DNA from: Escherichia phage vB_EfeM_pEP20
Length of the DNA stretch: 64,000 bases
Sequence record: OQ743992
Reading direction: 5' to 3' (one strand)
Part shown: piece after piece, positions 1 through 12,151 of the stretch
Layout: each line of letters starts with the position of its first letter
Position numbering within the stretch: the first letter of the stretch is position 1
Notes under the pieces: model-generated
Database searches by the model: none
Told to the model about the DNA's origin: nothing
What the model saw: the letters and a program-made list of their open reading frames with translations, nothing else
Position numbers and translations under genes: made by a program

Positions 1-600
1 GGTAGCCCTTAACATCCCTGTAACATCCCCTTTGCAGAATTTTAAAATATCATTAACAATCTCTTAACAGTTACTACATCTTCTTAACAACTCTTCAGAG
101 GTCTTAACAGTCTCTTAACAGTTTTAACAAGGGGGGTAACAGTTTCTTAACAAGTGCTGAATAGTCTTTACAGAGGCTTAACAGATGACTAACAAGAGCT
201 AACAAGTTAATTTTAAAGAGTTATTTTGTTAAGATAATTAACAAGTTCCTAACAAGTGTTTAATCTTTTTAACAAGCTATTAACATGGTCACTATCTCTT
301 CTCTTATCGTTCCCTTTTCTCTCTTAGTGATTCTCTAAACATACCTCTTAAAAGCTCTCTATAGCTCCTTGTAAGCTCTTTTTAGTCTCTTCCTAGTTAC
401 TACACCCCAACTGTACAGATACCTTTTTATAGAGCTTTACAGGAGCTTTTAAGGCTATGCCAAAGGCTCTTACAAGGCTTTTACGTGGTCTTAACAGAGA
501 TTTAACAAGGGGCTAACAAGTTGCTAACAAGTGCCTTAAAAGCATAACTATGTAGGGGTTGTTAAGAAATTGTTAAGAAAATGTTAAGGGGGCTAGCATT
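1..600. repeat. Iteron-like noncoding block: about 25 direct copies of TAACA(A/G), mostly (c)TTAACA(a/g)g, spaced 10-20 bp; no credible ORF
   Basis: Read directly: ttaacag/ttaacaa/ctaacaag recur at ~11, 22, 53, 64, 84, 103, 114, 124, 137, 147, 178, 190, 200, 237, 249, 269, 279, 491, 504, 514, 524, 562, 572, 583. Confidence 0.6.
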
Positions 601-601
601 T

Positions 602-641
602 ACGTAACTTTTAAGCTATCTATCACGTAACTTTTAAGCTA
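602..641. repeat. Two direct copies of 17-bp ACGTAACTTTTAAGCTA separated by 6 bp
   Basis: Exact duplicate read in sequence. Confidence 0.55.
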
Positions 642-1010
642 CTTCAAAGTAACTTTATAGCCCCCTATAACATACTTTTTAGTGACTATCAAGGGGATTG
701 TTTAGTAGTTCACAAGATACTAGCCAACCTATTAGCTTACACCCTTATAAGATTCTTTTAAGCCTCTATAAAGCCCTGTAAAGAGCTTTTAAGGGTGAGT
801 TAATGCAATCCCTTAAGTTAGGTTGATAAGGCTGTTATAGCGCTTTATAGAGCGTTTAAATGGGCCATCCCCTTTCTGGGGTTATTGGCTTATATTTAAG
901 TTGATTTGATAAAAGGCTATAGAGTAGACTATAGAGTTATTGCTTTTAAGGTCTGATAAGATTCTAGAAAGGCGAGGGAAAGGAATTGTATAAGGCTATT
1001 ACATAGACGT

Positions 1011-1044
1011 AAAAAAAAAAAAAAGCCCCTATGAGAAGGAGCTT
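1011..1044 (-). terminator. Intrinsic terminator closing the early ORFan cluster (minus strand)
   Basis: Minus-strand RNA: 7-bp stem AGCUCCU/AGGGGCU (one G-U pair) followed by U14 (A14 run at 1011-1024 on plus strand). Confidence 0.6.
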
Positions 1045-1081
1045 TTCAGGTATCTGGGGCTATTTAGCCCCGTTGCGTCGA

Positions 1082-1330
1082 TTAGTTGCAACCTTGTTTA
1101 TTGTAGTACAGGGAGACAATCAAATCACCCCAATAATGGTAATGATACTCATCGTTCAACGCCTCTTTTACTGCATCTTTCCAGAAGTCATCAGTAGGGT
1201 TATAGTCTGGGATAACTTGCTTGATAACTGTCTTCACTAATGAAAAGCATTCATCAGTTCCACCAATATCAAATTTAACGTCCAGAGTGTAGCAGCCATA
1301 AGAATTTACAATTGCGCGGATAGTTGCCAT
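1082..1330 (-). CDS. Hypothetical early protein (82 aa)
   Basis: ATG 8 nt after GGAGA within conserved type-A cassette; ends just before terminator. Confidence 0.5.
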   Translation of the reverse strand: MATIRAIVNSYGCYTLDVKFDIGGTDECFSLVKTVIKQVIPDYNPTDDFWKDAVKEALNDEYHYHYWGDLIVSLYYNKQGCN

Positions 1331-1403
1331 TTTTTGAATCTCCTAGTTTAAGGACTTTATTTAGTGGGGAAGCTCATTCCCTCCCCGTTGATTAGTAATT
1401 TAC
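1331..1403 (-). repeat. Type-A intergenic cassette (stem-loop GGGGAGGGAATGAgCTTCCCC, then RBS GGAGA, then ATG)
   Basis: About 70-bp element, near-identical at 5 sites. Confidence 0.6.
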
Positions 1404-1930
1404 AGATTTTTGATTGTCTCGTCAATATCTTTTTCAATATCTTTTAAAGTTTTTTCTAAGTTCTTGATATTGAAAGTTAAACCTTCTCCCAGTGTCTTAG
1501 AGTAACCGCTAGGACGTAAATCATAAAGCTCGATTTCTTCCACTAGAGAAAGGTTAACAGTCCAGCCACCTATGCCGTAGGCCATTGAAACGGTATTTAC
1601 AGGGGCTTTATAGAACTTGTTCAAGGACTTGATAGAACGTTCATAAGCCATTTTATAACCATTTAAAAGGTTTTTAACGTGATTGTGAACGTTTTTACAA
1701 TCATCTAAGTAAAGACCTAAAAACATCGGGAGAAGTTCCGCGACAGCTTGCATAAAGTGAGAAACTACCACAGTAGAAACATTACGACGATGGACGTAAT
1801 AAGCCCCGTTTTCTGATTTGGTGATTGTTGCAAAATGTACACCATTACAACGGAATTCATAGGTATCTTTAACAGGCTTTGACATAACACTATTTGAACG
1901 AATGAAGTTGATAGCTTTGAACTTGTTCAT
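1400..1930 (-). CDS. Hypothetical early protein (176 aa)
   Basis: Start moved to ATG (MNKFK...) that sits in the cassette RBS context; the track's longer 5' extension runs through the cassette. Confidence 0.5.
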   Translation of the reverse strand: MNKFKAINFIRSNSVMSKPVKDTYEFRCNGVHFATITKSENGAYYVHRRNVSTVVVSHFMQAVAELLPMFLGLYLDDCKNVHNHVKNLLNGYKMAYERSIKSLNKFYKAPVNTVSMAYGIGGWTVNLSLVEEIELYDLRPSGYSKTLGEGLTFNIKNLEKTLKDIEKDIDETIKNL

Positions 1931-2001
1931 TTTTGAATCTCCTAGTTTAAGGACTTCACTTAGTGGGGAGGTTATTGCCTTCCCGTTGATTAGTAATTTA
2001 C
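1931..2001 (-). repeat. Type-A intergenic cassette (degenerate stem-loop variant)
   Basis: Sequence similarity to the other type-A copies. Confidence 0.5.
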
Positions 2002-2152
2002 TTGTTTTGATAGTTGATTGCAAGTAATTTTTTGAGCTTATCTATAAAGAATCTTTTAAGTTAATCCCTTTTAGATAAACCCCCTCGAACAAAGTTACCA
2101 ATGTCAAGAGGGATTGTCAACATCTTTTTAAAAGTTTTTTGTAAGTTATTGA

Positions 2153-2494
2153 TTAACTGATGAATATTTTTTCAGGCTTTACATAGCTGATACGCTGACT
2201 TTTTAGCAGGCTATCCCATAACAAGGCGGCAATGTGCCCATATCCGGCCTCACGCAGCCCCTTCATCGTTTCAACTCGACTCTCAAAACGATTTGCGTAA
2301 TACTCGCTATTAAGTGTCGTTTTGTTCCCTTCGTTATCTGTATGGATGATTTGCATCACTTGAAAGGGGCTGACATCCTCGCCTTTGTTCCACTGCTCAA
2401 AGTATTTTAGGCACTGCATAGGTGACATCTTATCACTTACTTGAGTTGACCAAGATGAATCTTCTTTATCGGTAATTACAGTTACATAAGCCAT
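2153..2494 (-). CDS. Hypothetical early protein (113 aa)
   Basis: ORF plus cassette RBS. Confidence 0.5.
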   Translation of the reverse strand: MAYVTVITDKEDSSWSTQVSDKMSPMQCLKYFEQWNKGEDVSPFQVMQIIHTDNEGNKTTLNSEYYANRFESRVETMKGLREAGYGHIAALLWDSLLKSQRISYVKPEKIFIS

Positions 2495-2566
2495 TTTAGA
2501 ATCTCCTAGTTTAAGGATTTTATTTAGTGGGGAAGGTCATTCCCTCCCCGTTGATTGACAATTTAC
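2495..2566 (-). repeat. Type-A intergenic cassette
   Basis: ggggaaggtcattccctcccc hairpin plus GGAGA RBS. Confidence 0.6.
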
Positions 2567-2585
2567 AGATTTTTATCAGGCTTGT

Positions 2586-2819
2586 CTAGTCTTTTTCAAT
2601 GATAATTTCATATTGACCATCGACACTGTCAAAATAGACGCCGTCTTCATCTTCTGTCTTAAAGTAGCATTGAATATCATCACTGGCGGGATAGTCTTGT
2701 CTTGCTATCTGGCAAACTTGAATAGCATTTTCTTTACTCCCTGTAAACTCCTCAAGCCCTTTAAAATCACATGAATGACCATTACAAATAGAAAGGATAA
2801 GATAAACGGTTGTAAGCAT
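2586..2819 (-). CDS. Hypothetical small protein with hydrophobic N-terminus (77 aa)
   Basis: ORF; N-terminal MLTTVYLILSICNG; no cassette upstream. Confidence 0.4.
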   Translation of the reverse strand: MLTTVYLILSICNGHSCDFKGLEEFTGSKENAIQVCQIARQDYPASDDIQCYFKTEDEDGVYFDSVDGQYEIIIEKD

Positions 2820-2882
2820 GATTTAAGCCCTTTAAATGGCCCTGTATGGGCCTTAAGTTGGAAGTTGGTGTCTTTGTACTGA

Positions 2883-3446
2883 TTAACCTAAAAAGTCTTT
2901 TAAATTGCGCTCTGTGATGTTTGCCGTGATTTTATCCAGCAAGTCACAAAACACGGAACTATCACCGCTATTCTGTACAATTTTCGCCATACTTAACAAA
3001 TCATCGTCAACATAGCCTAAATTGCGGTTAGTTGCATCTGGTACAAAGAAAGGTGCATACATCGCACTAAATTTCGTCGAGTGAAGGCCAATAATCCAAT
3101 TTTTATCAAAGTGTCCGGTAAAGCTGGCGATATCGCTCATGTTGTCACAAGAATAATCATCCTCTAGCTCTTCCTCTGGGATATCCATCTCAATGACAAT
3201 TACGTCCTGCGTTTCCATTTGGAAAGCTGCCGTAATAAGCCCAGATTCTAAAGCGTTTTGAATGCAGCGTTCACGAATGTAAGAATCTTCCTCATCTTCC
3301 AGACATTCCGTTTTGATAATCTTGTTCATTGGGTAAACGTAGAAACAATCATCCATGTAGGAGCAGTTCCAGATTCCTTCTGGCTTGTCACCACCATTCA
3401 GCAAGTTTACAAAGTTTTTGAGGGTAGTGCCGTGATAGCATTTCAT
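2883..3446 (-). CDS. Putative PARP/diphtheria-toxin-like (H-Y-E class) ADP-ribosyltransferase-like protein (187 aa); tentative
   Basis: N-terminal YHGTTLKNFVNLLNGG resembles PARP HGSRTTNFAGILSQG and toxin SYHGT; followed by SYMDDCFYVY (compare YMFGKGIYF) and a candidate catalytic Glu in VIVIEMD; type-B cassette upstream. Confidence 0.4.
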   Translation of the reverse strand: MKCYHGTTLKNFVNLLNGGDKPEGIWNCSYMDDCFYVYPMNKIIKTECLEDEEDSYIRERCIQNALESGLITAAFQMETQDVIVIEMDIPEEELEDDYSCDNMSDIASFTGHFDKNWIIGLHSTKFSAMYAPFFVPDATNRNLGYVDDDLLSMAKIVQNSGDSSVFCDLLDKITANITERNLKDFLG

Positions 3447-3538
3447 TTTTGAATCTCCAGTTTAGGATTTAGCGGTAAAGCTCTTTATCTGGGGCTTAAG
3501 ATATCAACTTTTAAGCCCCCTGTAAAGTACTTTATTAC
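3447..3538 (-). repeat. Type-B intergenic cassette (palindrome GTAAAGTACTTTAC, hairpin GGGGCTTAA...TTAAGCCCC, RBS)
   Basis: About 90-bp element found at 6 sites. Confidence 0.6.
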
Positions 3539-3736
3539 TTAATTTTTGACAACTTTTAAAACTGCAAGATAACCTAAGCAATAAGAATCACCGAAGAGAG
3601 TTCTACCCATGAAAGAATCCTCTTTGATATCCTTTGCAGTGACAGTTTTTTCTACGCCGTGGGAAAGGACTACATCACCAACTTTGATGTCTTTGATGTG
3701 TGTTGTTTCAATGGTTAAGCCGTTAATAATAGCCAT
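3539..3736 (-). CDS. Hypothetical early protein (65 aa)
   Basis: ORF plus type-A cassette RBS. Confidence 0.45.
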   Translation of the reverse strand: MAIINGLTIETTHIKDIKVGDVVLSHGVEKTVTAKDIKEDSFMGRTLFGDSYCLGYLAVLKVVKN

Positions 3737-3808
3737 TTTAGAATCTCCTAGTTTAAGGACTTTATTTAGTGGGGAAGGTCATTCCCTCCCCGTTGATTAG
3801 TAATTTAC
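3737..3808 (-). repeat. Type-A intergenic cassette
   Basis: Near-identical to the 2495-2566 copy. Confidence 0.6.
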
Positions 3809-3839
3809 TTGTTTTAAAAACCAAAATCAAGAGGAATTT

Positions 3840-4244
3840 TTATAGTTCTGCGTAAATTGCGTCACAGATATCACGAAAATCATGATTTGTTAAATTACGT
3901 TGCAACCATGTTGCGAAAAAGTCAGCGATTGCAAAATTTGCGTCATACTCGACAGATAACCACACTTTAACAGCAAAACGAAACATTTTTAAATCAAGCT
4001 CTTTATTCATTACCTTAGATTTGCCTAACATGTCAGCCATTTCATATTGTGCACCGTCTAGCGTGATACCTGCTGCAACGTCAGCCAGTGAGTTTTTTAC
4101 GTTTTCAACGTCTAAGATAACACTTTGAATCTTCCCGATAATGTTGTGCAATGTCTCATCCGGTGCTGATGATGTAATAACATTAATCCGATTAACGGTC
4201 AAACGTGCTTTTAAGATTGATAACTCACGGTTATTAATAGCCAT
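3840..4244 (-). CDS. Hypothetical early protein (134 aa)
   Basis: ORF plus type-B cassette RBS. Confidence 0.5.
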   Translation of the reverse strand: MAINNRELSILKARLTVNRINVITSSAPDETLHNIIGKIQSVILDVENVKNSLADVAAGITLDGAQYEMADMLGKSKVMNKELDLKMFRFAVKVWLSVEYDANFAIADFFATWLQRNLTNHDFRDICDAIYAEL

Positions 4245-4329
4245 TTTAGAATCTCCAATTTAGGATTGAGTGATAAAGCTCTTTATCTGGGGCTTACTTT
4301 ATCGAACTATAAGCCCCTTGTAAAGTACT
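4245..4329 (-). repeat. Type-B intergenic cassette (variant loop)
   Basis: ggggcttactttatcgaactataagcccc hairpin plus gtaaagtactttat. Confidence 0.55.
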
Positions 4330-4602
4330 TTATGCTAAATGCAGCTTTTTGCCTTTTACTATGATGTAACTTGATGCACTATTGCCGCATACATCTTGAT
4401 AAATTCTACGCAAACGGCCTTCGTAGTATACTTTCCAGCTAGTTGGAATCTTTTTCCCGTATCCGGTAGCAGTTTTTTGGAATCCTGCAAGTTGCCAATC
4501 CAAAATGTGCTGTTCAGCTTGTAAATCCTCGAAGTGCATTACACCGTTCACATAGTGGCGTAGGGTTACGTTTAGAGTGCGACTGTTGTTAGCAGTATAC
4601 AT
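4330..4602 (-). CDS. Hypothetical early protein (90 aa)
   Basis: Start moved to ATG (MYTANN...) directly after a cassette-type GGAGA RBS. Confidence 0.45.
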   Translation of the reverse strand: MYTANNSRTLNVTLRHYVNGVMHFEDLQAEQHILDWQLAGFQKTATGYGKKIPTSWKVYYEGRLRRIYQDVCGNSASSYIIVKGKKLHLA

Positions 4603-4627
4603 TCTAGAATCTCCTAGTTTAAGGATT

Positions 4628-4786
4628 TTATTTTGACAGTTCACTAATTAAGACATCAAAGATTATATCATTATCTGCTACAGTTGCAACACCAGTGATA
4701 TAATCAATTTCTAAGATAACAACAACTTTCGTACATAAACCGTCATCTATATCATTCCAGACAACTTTATCACCTGCACAAAACAT
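4628..4786 (-). CDS. Small hypothetical protein (52 aa), absent from the ORF track (below its size cutoff)
   Basis: Hand translation MFCAGDKVVWNDIDDGLCTKVVVILEIDYITGVATVADNDIIFDVLISELSK; ATG preceded by type-A cassette RBS. Confidence 0.35.
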   Translation of the reverse strand: MFCAGDKVVWNDIDDGLCTKVVVILEIDYITGVATVADNDIIFDVLISELSK

Positions 4787-4856
4787 TTTTAGATTCTCCA
4801 GTTTAGGACTTTATTTAGTGGGGAAGGTCATTCCCGCCCCGTTGATGTGTAATTTA
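4787..4856 (-). repeat. Type-A intergenic cassette
   Basis: ggggaaggtcattcccgcccc hairpin plus RBS. Confidence 0.55.
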
Positions 4857-4875
4857 ATCTATCTGAAAACCAGTG

Positions 4876-5208
4876 TCAACAGTTTTGTTTTCGTTTGTTC
4901 AGTTCTTGGACAATTACAGTGTAATAGTCTTTTAAGTCACTGATATTTAAAGCATTTATCAGAGAGTTATAATCATCGACAAGCTGAAAATCATCTTTGA
5001 AAATGTCGCTGATTTGATAAGTTTTTGATTGAAATCTGAAGCTCATTTCTAACCGTTTTATTTGTTCATCACTTAAACGCTCCAGAAAACTCATTACAAG
5101 GCTATTATTGACCTGTTGCGTGATTGCCTTACTTGCCAGATTGTAGGCGCTGTACGCCTTATATAGCGCCATAATAGCAATGATTGCAGTGACTCCCATC
5201 ATTAACAT
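4876..5208 (-). CDS. Hypothetical membrane protein (110 aa, N-terminal TM helix)
   Basis: ORF; hydrophobic MLMMGVTAIIAIMALY; start overlaps the stop of the upstream gene. Confidence 0.45.
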   Translation of the reverse strand: MLMMGVTAIIAIMALYKAYSAYNLASKAITQQVNNSLVMSFLERLSDEQIKRLEMSFRFQSKTYQISDIFKDDFQLVDDYNSLINALNISDLKDYYTVIVQELNKRKQNC

Positions 5209-5498
5209 GGTGTTACCTCTTTACGTGACACTTTGCCATTTACAGTTATCTCATAGGATTCTAATAAATCGCTTTTAGACTTTACAGGACTTTTAAAAGT
5301 ATCATCATAGATATTAACTTGCAATACAGGTTTTTTATACTCCCTGCAACTATTCCATAAGCAAATCACTACACGACGGCCTTTTATTTTGCCGTGTAAC
5401 CATTCCATAACATCATGACTATTCCTTGATGTCTCGATAAAATCGATTTTATTGAGTAATTTGCTAAGGTTTTCCCTAACTTTATTTGATAATTTCAT
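5202..5498 (-). CDS. Hypothetical early protein (98 aa)
   Basis: ORF plus type-B cassette RBS. Confidence 0.5.
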   Translation of the reverse strand: MKLSNKVRENLSKLLNKIDFIETSRNSHDVMEWLHGKIKGRRVVICLWNSCREYKKPVLQVNIYDDTFKSPVKSKSDLLESYEITVNGKVSRKEVTPC

Positions 5499-5590
5499 TT
5501 TAGAATCTCCTAGTTTAAGGGTTTTATTTGATAAATCTCTTTATCTGGGGCTATCCTACCAGCTTGATAGCCCCGTGTAAAGAGGTCTAT
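5499..5590 (-). repeat. Type-B intergenic cassette (variant)
   Basis: ggggctatcctaccagcttgatagcccc hairpin plus RBS. Confidence 0.5.
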
Positions 5591-6103
5591 TTAGTCCTTA
5601 AAGATATTCATCACTGAATCTTTTAATGCTTCCAAGCGTTCTAATACTTCAGATTCTGCGTCTGCGTTGTTCACTTCCTCTTTTAGTCTGCCATCTAAAT
5701 CATCGCCGTCACTGTAGCACCAATCGAAAGCATAACCAATATAAAAACTGTCTAAAACAGTGTTACCATCTGCATCTACAACTTTCGCGGCAATGTTATA
5801 CTCTGAAGCCTCTAAATCTCTTTCTAGTTCTTTCTGTAAGCTGGTGTAAGCCTCTTTTGATGGATTTTCCCGACCTTGTTTTGCATAGTCACTAGAAAGC
5901 TGTTTAAGGCTGTAATGTAAAGGGATTGCATATTTAAATTCATTATGCTGATGGTTGGGATTTTTAATAGTTACACCGCCTTGATGGTCATCTGTAAACT
6001 GCCAATTATCAAGATTATGGCTTGCTTCAAAGCAGTTTACAGCTTCATAGATGATAGAAAATTTTTCTTTTACAACTTCAAAGGTAGCGTCTACAGTTTT
6101 CAT
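5591..6103 (-). CDS. Hypothetical early protein (170 aa, acidic C-terminus)
   Basis: ORF plus type-B cassette RBS. Confidence 0.5.
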   Translation of the reverse strand: MKTVDATFEVVKEKFSIIYEAVNCFEASHNLDNWQFTDDHQGGVTIKNPNHQHNEFKYAIPLHYSLKQLSSDYAKQGRENPSKEAYTSLQKELERDLEASEYNIAAKVVDADGNTVLDSFYIGYAFDWCYSDGDDLDGRLKEEVNNADAESEVLERLEALKDSVMNIFKD

Positions 6104-6193
6104 TTTTGAATCTCCTAGTTTAAGGATTGAGTGGTAAAGCTCTTTATCTGGGGCTTAAGATATCAGCTTTTAAGCCCCCTGTAAAGTACTTTA
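6104..6193 (-). repeat. Type-B intergenic cassette
   Basis: Same element as 3447-3538. Confidence 0.6.
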
Positions 6194-6451
6194 TCAGATT
6201 AAATTGCCAGTTAATGATAAGTGCATTTTATAGCCTTTTTTGGTAAACACGTTCACTTTACCGAGTGATTTTACACCTTTAAAAAGATTGTTTGAACTGC
6301 GTTTTAAGGTTATTTGCTTATCAGCCTTCACGCTCCACCTTACAGCAGATTGTTTTCCGTTGTCAACAACTTTCCCGCCTAACTTTTTCGCCATGATGCG
6401 AGCGTCATCACGAGTTTTTGCAGGAACTACAACGTTTTTGATAATAGCCAT
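6194..6451 (-). CDS. Hypothetical basic protein (85 aa)
   Basis: ORF plus type-B cassette RBS. Confidence 0.5.
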   Translation of the reverse strand: MAIIKNVVVPAKTRDDARIMAKKLGGKVVDNGKQSAVRWSVKADKQITLKRSSNNLFKGVKSLGKVNVFTKKGYKMHLSLTGNLI

Positions 6452-6539
6452 TTTAGAATCTCCAATTTAGGATTGAGTGATAAAGCTCTTTATCTGGGGC
6501 TTACTTTATCGAACTATAAGCCCCTTGTAAAGTACTTTA
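6452..6539 (-). repeat. Type-B intergenic cassette
   Basis: Near-identical to 4245-4329. Confidence 0.6.
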
Positions 6540-6920
6540 TCAGTTAATTTTGAATATTGTCACATAACCATCACTACCAATTATTTGAGACGCTCCAGCT
6601 TTCTCCACTGAATAGCCCATATTTTCAAGATGGTAAACAGCATCATCATAACCATATGCGCCACCTTGATAACGTCTCTTATTGCAGCTTATCAGGTTTT
6701 TACCACGTCCAGCAAGTGCATTCAATACGGCTTTTTCACTTGATAGCGTACCATCTAACATGGTTGCCGTGTAATGGTTGATTTTATTCCCGTTAATATC
6801 ATACTTAAAATTGAATGCGTGAACAACAATCAATTTGCCGTTAAATTTTTCATCAAGTGACTTCTCCAGTGCGTTGCGGAAGTTGTCTTTGTTGATGAAT
6901 TTCGGTGCACGATAAGCCAT
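6540..6920 (-). CDS. Hypothetical early protein (126 aa)
   Basis: ORF plus type-B cassette RBS. Confidence 0.5.
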   Translation of the reverse strand: MAYRAPKFINKDNFRNALEKSLDEKFNGKLIVVHAFNFKYDINGNKINHYTATMLDGTLSSEKAVLNALAGRGKNLISCNKRRYQGGAYGYDDAVYHLENMGYSVEKAGASQIIGSDGYVTIFKIN

Positions 6921-7009
6921 TTTTGAATCTCCTAGTTTAAGGTTAATGTAGTAAAGCTCTTTATCTGGGGCTTAAGATATCAGCTTTTAAGCCCCCTGTA
7001 AAGTACTTT
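6921..7009 (-). repeat. Type-B intergenic cassette
   Basis: Same element as 6104-6193. Confidence 0.6.
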
Positions 7010-7216
7010 TTATTTATCGTAGTAGTAAATTGCTGTCTGTCTTGTAAACTTCTTAGTGTTTCTTGTAAGGTAGCAATTAGAATTAATAGCCGTTTCTACA
7101 TAGTTGCAATAGTCGGCTTCTGATATTCTGGACCATACGCCACAGATTTTCATGTAAAAACGTTTTGCCTTTGTGTTAACGTTAGTTGTAACCATTAATT
7201 CACGATAGTAAGTCAT
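7010..7216 (-). CDS. Hypothetical early protein (68 aa)
   Basis: ORF; RBS ggaga plus a different upstream hairpin. Confidence 0.45.
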   Translation of the reverse strand: MTYYRELMVTTNVNTKAKRFYMKICGVWSRISEADYCNYVETAINSNCYLTRNTKKFTRQTAIYYYDK

Positions 7217-7472
7217 TTTTGGATTCTCCAGTTTAGGAAGTGGGCTGGCTTGCCCGTCTGATGCAAATATTAGATAACCATACTCAAAGAGTCAATAGGA
7301 ATTTTAAAAATATTTTTGCAAAAAACTGTAATGAAACGGGCGCACGCGACTACCACAAAACAGAACTACAATCAAGAATTATTTTTCAATCAGCTACAAA
7401 TTTTTCTGTTGACTTTTCTTTTCAGATGTGGTAGCCTTGTGAGAAATGGCGACATCCCCACCTGCACCCACC

Positions 7473-7651
7473 TACCTGCACAATTCTAAAATGATTTTTC
7501 TTGCCCGACCTGAGCGGGGTCTGCACGTTTTGAAAATAAAAAAACCCTTTGGAGATTACCTGCACAGTTTGAAAATGAATTTTCTCTTTGGAGTTCAAAA
7601 TTTTCTCTATAGATTTCTCTACAGAACTCTACCTGCACAAATCTGAAATGA
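7473..7651. promoter_or_regulatory. Three direct copies of 22-bp motif TACCTGCACA(a/g)(a/t)T(c/t)TGAAAATGA at ~7473, 7557 and 7630, in a 500-bp intergenic region
   Basis: Read directly; about 80-bp spacing; candidate promoter or operator sites between two minus-strand gene blocks. Confidence 0.4.
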
Positions 7652-7724
7652 AAAAGCCCTCCTTACCTGAAAAATTTACCAGATAAGAAAGGCTTAGTCT
7701 ATTGTGAATATACTACGAAGTTTC

Positions 7725-8510
7725 TTAGTTCTTTGCGTCTAAGAAGGTAAGCTCTGGTGAAGAGAAGATTAACTCAATATCCTCATCAGTTCTTGCATAG
7801 ATATAAGCATCTGCATCACTGCCAAATGTTACTGCAATTCTGTGATTGCTCTTCGACAGGTGGGTAACTAGAGCGTTACTTAGAGACATCTTTTCAACCG
7901 GAGGGTTACTTTGATGTATCTTGCCTTTTCTTCGTCTGAAGAGGGTAACTGCATCATTAGTGAACACTACTACACCTGCAAAGTATTCTGGTTCACAGTA
8001 GTTCTTCCAACCTGAGCGTAACTTGTGGTACATCTCTCCTTCATAGACATATAGATACACATCTACACTCTTCATCACTTGATTAATGATAACTGTGACG
8101 GCTTGAGGGTCTAGTCCACCGATACCTGCACCAATCATAGGTAACCCAACTTTCTTCAACTGATTGACTTCACAGTATCTGTTAAGCTGTTTCAAAGATG
8201 ACTCTAAAGCACTGTATCGGGCATCTTTACCAGTCTTAAGCTGAGTGTAAAGGTTAGCTATACGACCTTGTTTTAAACGTGCTACAGAGAAATTACCTAG
8301 CAAATTTTCACAGGGTTTGTAGCCTATACCACCTGCATACAGATAAACTTCTGTATCAGTCTCATATGCTTTTGGGTAAAGTTTAGAAATCTTGTCAGCG
8401 ATACCTGCACCCATTAAGTTCATACAGTTGCAACCGTGACCGATGACGTCAAACTTACCTTTATCAAATGCTGCAAAGATATCACCATTGATGATTTTTA
8501 CAATACCCAT
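7725..8510 (-). CDS. Macrodomain protein (TARG1/OARD1- and DarG-like N-terminal domain plus about 110-aa C-terminal domain of unknown function)
   Basis: GDIF...HGCNCMNLMGAGIA and LPMIGAGIGGL resemble TARG1 GDLF...MGAGIA and MPRIGCGL; last gene of a coupled operon. Confidence 0.6.
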   Translation of the reverse strand: MGIVKIINGDIFAAFDKGKFDVIGHGCNCMNLMGAGIADKISKLYPKAYETDTEVYLYAGGIGYKPCENLLGNFSVARLKQGRIANLYTQLKTGKDARYSALESSLKQLNRYCEVNQLKKVGLPMIGAGIGGLDPQAVTVIINQVMKSVDVYLYVYEGEMYHKLRSGWKNYCEPEYFAGVVVFTNDAVTLFRRRKGKIHQSNPPVEKMSLSNALVTHLSKSNHRIAVTFGSDADAYIYARTDEDIELIFSSPELTFLDAKN

Positions 8511-8711
8511 TTAACATCTCTCCCAAGATTCTTTATCTTCTGAAGGTTTTACACGTTGTCCTTCGTGGTCTACCCAGATACACCCGCAGCCTTCACAGAT
8601 TACTGGCATTGCATAACCAGCTTTAAAGTCGTCTTCAGTGATAAGACCTTTTAAGTCTCCTGTATCACGTCCGAACATTTCGATAGAACAGTCTTTGCAG
8701 AAGTCAGCCAC
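8511..8711 (-). CDS. Small Cys-rich (zinc-ribbon-like) protein (66 aa)
   Basis: CKDC...CEGCGC; GTG start overlapping the upstream stop; its stop abuts the macrodomain ATG. Confidence 0.45.
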   Translation of the reverse strand: MADFCKDCSIEMFGRDTGDLKGLITEDDFKAGYAMPVICEGCGCIWVDHEGQRVKPSEDKESWERC

Positions 8712-12064: not shown

Positions 12065-12126
12065 TGGTTCTCCTGTTTAGTTTATCGTGACATCAATTAT
12101 ACAGCACTCTGCACAAAATACAAATA

Positions 12127-12151
12127 AAAAAGGCCGCCGAAGCAGCCTTTT
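12127..12151 (-). terminator. Intrinsic terminator after rIIB (GGCUGC-UUCG-GCGGCC then U6AU3)
   Basis: Stem-loop plus U run on minus-strand RNA. Confidence 0.55.

Follow-up and report, generated by a model that had tools for sequence, protein, structure and literature searches.

The stretch of DNA analysed here, called the window throughout, comprises 64,000 nucleotides of Escherichia phage vB_EfeM_pEP20 (sequence record OQ743992), read 5' to 3' on one strand. The window belongs to a Felix O1-like myophage (Felixounavirus, with E. coli, Salmonella and Shigella hosts), and megablast of its positions 6900-8600 returned 246 phage records, nearly all Felixounavirus, with identity up to 96%. A 508-bp intergenic gap at 7217-7724, between a cluster of small ORFan genes and a macrodomain gene, holds an array of short direct repeats that is the subject of this work. 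The array is unique in the genome, keeps a fixed orientation and is deeply conserved in sequence and position, within a layout of promoters and a terminator. The initial annotation of the window, made from the sequence alone, had drawn attention to a long gap at this place, and rightly so: it is the longest stretch free of minus-strand open reading frames (ORFs) within the first 37 kb, the terminal positions 1-1081 excepted.

The array is made of four units in the same orientation, spaced by 45, 39 and 73 bp. Three copies about 80 bp apart, with a six-base gap inside the motif, had been reported initially. All three are exact matches to TACCTGCACA-N5-[AG]AAATGA on the + strand (7473-7494, 7557-7578 and 7630-7651) and their spacings of 84 and 73 bp agree with that description, but the gap before [AG]AAATGA is five bases long and a further unit, at 7518-7539, had been missed. 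What was taken for a partial fourth copy, cacctgcaccc at 7459, is the TGCAC half alone and lies outside the conserved array, because about half of the relatives carry a G-rich replacement of the segment that contains it. The units and this half-motif are given below, with scores from a weight matrix built from 24 distinct units of five phage lineages.

7473..7494, + strand: repeat unit 1, TACCTGCACAATTCTAAAATGA; exact pattern match, 33.7 bits, nearly invariant in 25 distinct relatives.
7518..7539, + strand: repeat unit 2, GGTCTGCACGTTTTGAAAATAA; found as repeat-finding family D1, 29.8 bits.
7557..7578, + strand: repeat unit 3, TACCTGCACAGTTTGAAAATGA; exact pattern match, 36.3 bits.
7630..7651, + strand: repeat unit 4, TACCTGCACAAATCTGAAATGA; exact pattern match, 37.5 bits.
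7459..7469, + strand: half-motif CACCTGCACCC, TGCAC block only, within the variable segment 7418-7470.

The core common to the units reads TGCAC[A/G], seven A/T-rich bases, AAATGA, an asymmetric arrangement of two blocks. The information profile shows TGCAC, the following [A/G] and AAAT-G-A as invariant, while the seven-base middle varies and stays A/T-rich. The two bases that precede TGCAC depend on the clade, being YC in the Felix, Moogle and SUSP phages and TA or AA in Kolesnikvirus and in the lineage named L065 below. The A-run of unit 4 overlaps a terminator, of which it is the minus-strand T-tract.

The four units score 29.8-37.5 bits, far above the next best site of the window (18.8), the best of 20 shuffles (16.3) and the highest score in Bas63, a 95%-identical phage, outside the part covered by the window (15.2). 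Chance therefore does not account for the motif, which is real and confined to this locus. A search of the rest of the genome, which the initial annotation had called for, thus returns no site above 19 bits off the array in the window or the remainder of Bas63. No further match with up to three mismatches to the three-copy pattern occurs in the 64 kb; shuffled sequences give 0.47 such matches on average and one shuffle in 100 reaches three. The best off-array site of the matrix, at 12105, lies in a compact junction on the minus strand (12080-12150) where a terminator T-run is followed by TTGTGCAG and then by an extended -10 promoter, TGTATAAT, for the next gene; the site seems to resemble the motif by coincidence. 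No paper describing the array came up when its motif was searched as text, the sole phage match being a polymerase chain reaction primer, and the Felix O1 genome paper lists only repeats of at least 24 bp, elsewhere in the genome and without this array. We thus found no published description of it. It fits none of the specific families of elements that were considered, although direct repeats acting in cis in the control region of a phage are well known as a general kind.

The motif is kept in at least five lineages of phages, so that a lack of conservation in relatives, proposed initially as grounds for dismissing it, does not apply. The lineages, their numbers of units and the spacings in bp are as follows.

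Felixounavirus (more than 20 IMG/VR contigs and GenBank genomes): 4 units, 45/39/73.
Si3 / phiWec172 lineage: 3 units, unit 3 being replaced by other sequence, 45/75.
Mooglevirus and Suspvirus: 4 units, 45/41/75.
Kolesnikvirus (Erwinia phage phiEa21-4, Hafnia phage SPARTY): 4 units, 39/37/37.
L065-type uncultured phage: 5 units, 38/36, a gap, then 36.

Orientation and location of the array are the same in Felixounavirus, Suspvirus, Mooglevirus, Kolesnikvirus and the L065-type phage, with the macrodomain gene and its terminator directly upstream and the outward-transcribed ORFan cluster downstream. When the window is compared with phiEa21-4 by blastn, the only part of the gap that aligns is 7477-7579, which is the array. 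Units pair one-to-one between genera, down to the oddities of unit 2 (CACG and AAATAA), which the window and phiEa21-4 have in common; the spacers between units diverge and vary in length. The L065-type phage (contigs L065 and L190 of IMGVR_UViG_3300045988_063805, 88,375 bp) has no nucleotide relative in the GenBank phage set. It shares with the window the macrodomain gene and three neighbouring genes alone, at 30-48% amino-acid identity, and has no homologue of the window's ORFan genes, yet the architecture is kept: its five units, [CT][TA]ATGCAC[AG]-N6-[TG]AAAATGA, follow each other in the same orientation directly downstream of its macrodomain gene. The array is the most constrained non-coding element that we found in the group, persisting where adjacent proteins have diverged to 30-48% identity.

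The L065-type phage has an Ounavirinae-like synteny around the macrodomain gene, which a Dam methylase gene adjoins, and is probably a member of a new, deep-branching lineage allied to Ounavirinae. Its two sub-arrays are separated by DNA with a single Chi site (GCTGGTGG); the array region of the window has none. About 11 phased TGTTAA repeats (620-760 of L065) adjoin its array at 766-1020, and in the joined L190 and L065 contigs a region rich in TGTTAA/TTAACA, presumed to be the terminal repeat, is found at a gene convergence at about 6500-7500. The juxtaposition of the terminal-repeat motif and the array motif in this lineage may mean that the two elements interact. The 83.4-kb 'complete' record of Escherichia phage Andreotti (MN850610.1; L004 1-90) begins 35 nt before unit 1; its first 23 nt repeat, in inverted form, the DNA that separates units 1 and 2, and the genome is 3-4 kb shorter than those of relatives. 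This start may be an artefact of assembly, or else it hints that the DNA breaks or folds back at the array.

The array lies close to a physical end of the genome. The direct terminal repeat of phage Pr103Blw, defined by PhageTerm as 581 bp long, maps onto positions 1-593 of the window, whose position 1 is therefore the physical genome end. The main features of this end are given below.

1..593: direct terminal repeat at the physical genome end, located by mapping of the 581-bp repeat of Pr103Blw.
594..7216, - strand: small ORFan genes clustered at the terminus and read outward, toward the genome end; the array is the inner border of this cluster.
7217..7724: intergenic gap of 508 bp between the ORFan cluster and the macrodomain gene.
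7725..8510, - strand: macrodomain gene ('phosphatase', Tk.4-like; Pfam Macro, E 1e-7; PHROG 335).

This order, with terminal repeat, outward ORFan cluster, array and macrodomain gene, is kept in every lineage in which it could be read, the distance from array to terminal repeat ranging from 4.8 to 7.7 kb. According to ORF lists, the first + strand gene beyond the array appears only at about 36 kb.

The terminal repeat itself (1-593, also L007 1-581) is dense in TGTTAAG/CTTAACA, in both orientations and with many copies 10-11 bp apart; of the 41 copies of TGTTAAG in the 64 kb, where 17 are expected, 12 fall within these 593 bp. They may be terminase or end-binding sites. Their 11-bp phased TGTTA pattern resembles the sites of ArcA-type response regulators. 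In the Bas63 record (70,493-72,154; L192 8494-10155) the genes at both genome ends point outward to the terminal repeat, leaving about 1.7 kb of non-coding DNA between them in circularised maps. The 5' leader of the first ORFan gene, TTTTGGATTCTCCAGTTTAGGA, recurs ahead of other ORFan genes (7217-7238, 4787-4808, 3454-3467, 4252-4265 and 6459-6472), and the annotation of phage wV8 lists nine families of 40-80 bp direct repeats between ORFan genes. The arrangement suggests repeated promoter/leader cassettes, reminiscent of the promoter-stem-loop cassettes in the hyperplastic regions of T4-type phages, and such repeats probably cause assembly breaks.

Besides the repeat units, the gap contains a terminator, two promoters pointing away from each other and a highly conserved block.

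7654..7695, - strand: intrinsic terminator of the macrodomain operon, a 17-pair stem followed by TTTTTCATTTC; annotated as a terminator in phages Barry and wV8.
7409..7437, + strand: P_as, a probable rightward gene-less sigma70-like promoter, TTGACT-17 nt-TAGCCT, from which transcription would start near 7444-7446.
7372..7417: most conserved block of the gap, holding the P_as -35 and 37 nt upstream of it, with 90-100% column conservation computed over Felixounavirus, Mooglevirus and Suspvirus.
7267..7295, - strand: TTGACT-17-TAATAT, the sigma70 promoter serving the ORFan cluster, preceded by A/T-rich DNA; found by scan and conserved.

Along the minus strand the order is thus terminator, unit 4 over its T-tract, units 3, 2 and 1, about 180 bp, and the ORFan promoter, which precedes the first ORFan gene and is the least stable duplex of the gap. 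P_as, back-to-back with it, points through the array, antisense to the flanking genes. In the window its hexamers match at 8/12, below the level at which the promoter scan makes a call. We consider it likely because the hexamers are kept across a variable spacer and the block with its -35 is the most conserved part of the gap. The -35 is invariant in 33 distinct Ounavirinae regions in which the spacer varies or is wholly replaced; the -10 is TAGCCT in 14 of them, TAAGAG in 14, TAATAG in two, TAGTCT in one and TATACT, at 18 nt, in two. The equivalent in phiEa21-4, TTGACG-18-TATACT, matches at 10/12 and has a divergent spacer. The distance from P_as to unit 1 is fixed at 58-68 nt, with 171 nt in Kolesnikvirus. 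A rightward promoter with no gene of its own is therefore likely at this place.

The segment between the P_as -35 and unit 1 (7418-7470) exists in two versions of the same length and very different sequence. The window, Barry and phiWec172 carry a C-rich version, and wV8, Si3, Pr103Blw, SUSP1 and Moogle a purine-rich version with G-clusters, a similar G-rich stretch being found in Kolesnikvirus; each version can form its own, different hairpin. Between the divergent promoters, CGGGCGCACGCG at 7341-7352 is a conserved GC-rich block in A/T-rich surroundings.

The units were initially taken for tandem promoters, or for operator sites through which a phage or host factor would control the early cluster. 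The idea of binding is plausible; that of control of the ORFan promoter is more speculative. The units sit 178-356 bp upstream of the ORFan -35 and, at +28 to +207 of the predicted P_as start, inside the region that this conserved, opposite-pointing promoter would transcribe. Promoters of the early cluster they are not. On the gene (minus) strand no unit contains a -35/-10 pair, in agreement with the lack of sigma70 resemblance noted initially, and a promoter scan of 6900-8000 gives only the minus-strand site at 7295-7267, none being inside the repeats. A phage-specific promoter class was rejected because the motif is found nowhere else in the genome: it precedes no other gene of the window or of the rest of Bas63.

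Tandem promoters on the + strand, dependent on host sigma70 or on a phage factor, were considered as well. Units 1-3 hold TAAAAT or GAAAAT, resembling a -10 of the form [TG]AAAAT, the scan makes two promoter-like calls inside the phiEa21-4 array (TTGCCA-17-TAAAAT, 10/12), and T7 has tandem early promoters at a comparable location. Yet the + strand has no conserved -35 and no gene downstream, the gene strand of the units has no promoter-like sequence, and the motif is missing ahead of every other gene. The essential A at -11 is absent in unit 4 (TGAAAT) and in unit 3 of SUSP1 (GGAAAT), both of which are equally conserved, and selection bears on AAATGA and TGCAC rather than on a -10 hexamer. We regard tandem promoters as highly improbable.

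We favour, tentatively and with a probability of roughly 0.3, the hypothesis that the four units are DNA recognition sites for one conserved sequence-specific factor and constitute a boundary or control element. The features that speak for binding sites are the asymmetric two-block core, its A/T-rich spacer and its deep conservation while the flanks diverge, from which we infer that TGCAC[R]-W7-AAATGA is recognised by something. A two-block, asymmetric core with an A/T-rich spacer suggests a protein that reads DNA in two grooves, and the free spacing between units suggests independent sites. Conservation of the core where proteins are at 30-48% identity points away from a fast-evolving regulator and towards a factor of the host or a conserved core protein of the phage. 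In the mechanism that we envisage, the double-stranded units would be bound by a single conserved protein of one of these two kinds, which would touch two successive major grooves about 13 bp apart. The occupied sites could then form a polar boundary or control element, separating transcription of the macrodomain operon and from P_as from the terminal early module, or loading the factor there.

Several points weigh against this hypothesis. Protein-family searches detect no DNA-binding domain in the products of the genes neighbouring the array, and these proteins were set aside as candidates for the binding factor on that ground. The spacing of 37-75 bp between units shows no helical phasing and so does not suggest cooperative binding, and the units overlap neither promoter in the manner of classical operators. 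Deep conservation argues against a fast-evolving phage regulator. The A-run and T-run flanks of the units can be explained as relics of a duplicated terminator (SUSP1 units 2 and 4) instead of DNA-shape signals. No known host-factor consensus fits, the DnaA box matching at 6/9 in this phage and the marbox at 8-9/14 with its second element out of register. Comparison by eye with further consensuses gave none that fits all units (sigma54, sigmaE, IHF, CRP, OmpR, PhoP, NtrC, Lrp, EcoKI-type sites, the T4 RegA operator, boxA and Chi). Finally, the array is probably transcribed, given the conserved P_as, and a role at the RNA level fits most of the data equally.

The latter role is a possibility to be taken seriously, although we would not bet on it, and the data do not separate it from that of DNA sites. 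The array would be the body of a + strand antisense non-coding RNA driven by P_as, starting near 7445 and about 250 nt long or longer, whose four CUGCAC[R]-W7-AAAUGA motifs could serve as a multi-site scaffold, sponge or decoy for a conserved RNA-binding factor, or which could act as antisense to read-through. The arrangement of P_as supports this idea, with its kept hexamers and variable spacer, its near-constant distance to unit 1, the lack of a + strand gene and an orientation of the array relative to the promoter that never changes. A hairpin follows unit 4, and the motif on the + strand is A-rich and unstructured, as recognition of a single strand would need. However, this hairpin terminates transcription on the other strand only, having C-A mismatches and no U-tract on the + strand; a + strand RNA would therefore have no defined 3' end. 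The L065-type phage offers only a weak promoter candidate (9/12). The array has no significant fold (z = -1.8 on the + strand; the -2.4 of the minus strand is due to the terminator) and belongs to no Rfam family, the best matches in Rfam 15 having E = 0.15-4, far under gathering scores and mostly over the terminator. A known RNA family or a stable RNA structure was rejected on these grounds. Nothing relevant came from one literature search for transcriptomes of these phages.

A coding function was rejected as well. The ORFs across the array change strand, frame and length between lineages, and no reading frame survives unit spacings of 37, 41, 73 and 75 nt. Small hypothetical genes are annotated over the array on conflicting strands and in conflicting frames (wV8 gene 13, Bas63_0096/0097, Moogle115, Pr103Blw_00144) and are most likely annotation artefacts.

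A more specific role for a + strand RNA would be that of a decoy, or pseudo-antitoxin, for a host type III endoribonuclease of the ToxN kind. Phage PhiTE provides the precedent of an intergenic pseudo-ToxI mimic, and reported ToxN cleavage sites are AA^AU and GAA^AU. The succession of promoter, tandem units of 37-45 nt and hairpin resembles this system, and an invariant AAAU lies inside [G/U][A/G]AAAUGA in every unit, a weak sign in an A/T-rich region. Yet outside the core the units differ from one another, their lengths are unequal, the hairpin works as a terminator for the opposite strand only and no toxin gene is nearby. The combination of near-identical 34-48 nt repeats with a same-strand terminator, by which type III antitoxins are recognised, is absent. 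Likeness to the Pectobacterium ToxI sequence is no better than that of shuffled controls. Searches of 72,556 plasmids and 5,426 complete E. coli genomes turned up nothing similar, and a tandem-pattern scan of 185,579 species genomes gave no match in Enterobacterales; both results weigh against a host counterpart to be mimicked. We judge such a decoy very unlikely.

The pattern scan did return at least ten tandem arrays of 21-22 or 42 bp with the TGCAC-N7-AAATGA layout in unrelated bacteria. They are intergenic, with the unit (T)TTGCAC-N7-AAAATGA, and occur in Prevotellaceae, Clostridia, Ignavibacteriales, Caldilineaceae and Parabeggiatoa (contigs L102, L118, L123, L133, L134, L138, L170, L176 and L188), some genomes having several loci. 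Their neighbours (PriA, Ffh, LepA, a GH92 glycosidase, carbamoyl-phosphate synthase and others) include no shared partner and are unrelated housekeeping genes, so that these arrays give no clue to function. Most likely they are chance products of the search pattern.

That the units are functionless relics of a tandem duplication of the terminator region is the least credible of the explanations considered. The spacers of units 1-3 do resemble a collapsed unit-4 terminator (AAAAAGCCC-TTTGGAG compared with AAAAAGCCCTCC...TTTGGAGGGC in SUSP1). Yet, while the hairpins have decayed, the TGCAC...AAATGA cores are kept at 30-48% protein identity, and five lineages have retained the number, order and orientation of the units. 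Relics free of selection would not have lasted through such divergence, which strongly disfavours this explanation. Two further identities were rejected. The array is not a physical genome end or packaging site, the terminal repeat being 6.9 kb off at 1-593; metagenome contigs that end near the array are better explained by strain-variable flanks and by repeats dispersed among the ORFan cassettes, and the contig end of phage FSL SP-107 falls at the ORFan 5' region, outside the array. Nor is it a mini-array of clustered regularly interspaced short palindromic repeats (CRISPR), the units being non-palindromic and irregularly spaced; they show no evident likeness to the type I-E and type I-F CRISPR repeats.

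The largest non-coding gap, with a gene-less promoter aimed at a unique array of direct repeats, could also house an origin of replication. P_as would then provide a primer or an R-loop, and the repeated blocks would be sites of RNA-to-DNA transition or of helicase loading. Analogues are the T7 primary origin, with promoters and an A/T-rich region just past the early genes, oriF and oriG of T4, and the conserved sequence blocks of the mitochondrial D-loop. The replication genes look like those of T7, with primase and helicase fused and only one DNA polymerase gene; positions 1-50,000 and 62,000-87,100 of the Bas63 record carry no annotated initiator gene, and searches with the proteins neighbouring the array found none adjoining it. 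G-clusters occur on the non-template strand just past the promoter in wV8-type phages, Moogle, SUSP1 and Kolesnikvirus, but are missing from the lineage of the window. Several further features go against an origin: the array is not unusually meltable (-71 to -84 kcal/mol for 60-bp duplexes, the genome mean being -76.8), the least stable DNA of the gap being the ORFan promoter; there is no inflection of GC skew at 7.5 kb; the spacing of the units is irregular; and the replication module, with its divergent promoter region, is elsewhere in the genome.

Resemblance to the DnaA box could favour an origin in Kolesnikvirus, whose core matches at 8/9. Measured against TT[A/T]TNCACA with at most one mismatch, the Kolesnikvirus units CTATGCACA and TTATGCACG qualify (8/9), those of L065 do so in part (6-8/9), and the window units ACCTGCACA and GTCTGCACG have three mismatches each. 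The AAATGA block has no role in a DnaA box, and, host DnaA being essentially the same in these hosts, a function in common through DnaA would leave the clade-specific 5' flank unexplained. On balance we find an origin at this place unlikely.

The short distance of the array from the genome end raises a different possibility, an entry checkpoint like the injection-stop signal (iss) of phage T5. Transfer of the DNA would halt after the first ~7.5 kb, about 8.5% of the genome, and only the terminal ORFan genes would be expressed before the remainder enters. In T5 the stop is found 7.9% in from the left end, where conserved, repeat-bearing non-coding DNA that contains DnaA boxes adjoins hypervariable early ORFs. 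In the window, position 1 is the physical end and the array lies 7.5 kb in, which is about 8.3-8.9% of the 85-90 kb genomes of relatives; as in T5, conserved non-coding repeats with DnaA-box-like cores border hypervariable early ORFs. Against this, the distance from the end varies (4.8-7.7 kb), the phages of E. coli and Salmonella match the DnaA box poorly (6/9) and the array has nothing like the palindromes of T5 or its inverted repeats with paired DnaA boxes. Felix-type and L065-type phages have no ORFan gene in common and hence no conserved release factor like A1/A2, whose homologues were not the object of a direct search. We also know of no report of two-step transfer in this phage group. 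By analogy with T5, Felix O1-like myophages might deliver their DNA in two steps, pausing after a terminal ORFan module of ~7.5 kb that would serve host takeover or anti-defence, with the pause at the array recognised by a conserved host factor. We consider this very improbable; if true, T5-like two-step transfer would not be unique to the T5 group. The probability left over by all the explanations given here belongs to something that we have not considered.

Felix O1-like phages are widely used, in Salmonella typing, in biocontrol and in the BASEL collection, and to our knowledge neither the start of their replication nor the entry of their DNA has been described. The authors of the Felix O1 genome paper describe temporal regulation as not understood. 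The array sits where the hypervariable terminal early module meets the conserved genome and offers experiments a small, precise target, four 22-bp units and one promoter; what they bring to light could be an origin of replication, a boundary of transcription, a non-coding RNA made early or a checkpoint for DNA entry. In practice, spurious genes are annotated over it in several GenBank records, and engineered reporter or therapeutic phages should leave it intact.

Comparison with known systems gives partial likenesses. The T7 A1-A3 tandem early promoters are also closely spaced repeats beside early genes near a genome end, but the array has no gene-strand -35/-10 pair and the ORFan promoter is a separate site (7295-7267). 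Type III antitoxins (ToxI, CptI, TenpI) and the pseudo-ToxI of PhiTE share with it a promoter, units of ~37-45 nt with AAAU and a hairpin; they differ in that the units of the array are not homogeneous and have no evident pseudoknot core, toxin gene or host-genome counterpart. Iterons, as in lambda ori, P1 oriR and F ori2, are likewise three to five repeats of ~20 bp in the same orientation at a genome-unique locus, with a DnaA-box-like element and an asymmetric two-block core fitting a two-domain initiator. The four units, with a core of 18-22 bp, agree with the usual three or more direct repeats of about 17-22 bp. Their spacing is irregular, 37-75 bp compared with about 22 bp, without the helical phasing and adjacent meltable A/T-rich region of iterons, and the array has no adjacent initiator gene or skew signal. 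The T5 injection-stop region (repeat region 3 of the first-step-transfer DNA) is similarly a large non-coding region ~8% from the end, more conserved than the adjacent early ORFs and with ordered repeats and DnaA-box-like elements. Here, by contrast, there are four simple direct repeats outside the terminal repeat, without palindromes or inverted repeats, with poor DnaA-box matches and without a conserved A1/A2-type gene.

The two remaining comparisons bear on the recognition of DNA sites. The marbox bound by MarA, SoxS and Rob, AYnGCACnnWnnRYYAAAYn, is an asymmetric monomer site of ~20 bp read by two DNA-reading heads. The units have in common with it a GCAC element, a 7-bp A/T-rich spacer and an A-rich second element, and unit 2 shares CACGTTTTG with the mar marbox; they match 8-9 of the 14 specified positions of the consensus, with the second element 1-2 bp out of register, and are therefore not canonical marboxes. 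Orientation-dependent roadblocks are known from the stoperators of mycobacteriophage L5 and from DnaA bound to a DnaA box. As in the array, these are asymmetric intergenic sites set in one direction relative to transcription, beside a terminator. The L5 stoperators differ in being scattered genome-wide and bound by the phage repressor, whereas the units described here are clustered at one locus of a virulent phage.

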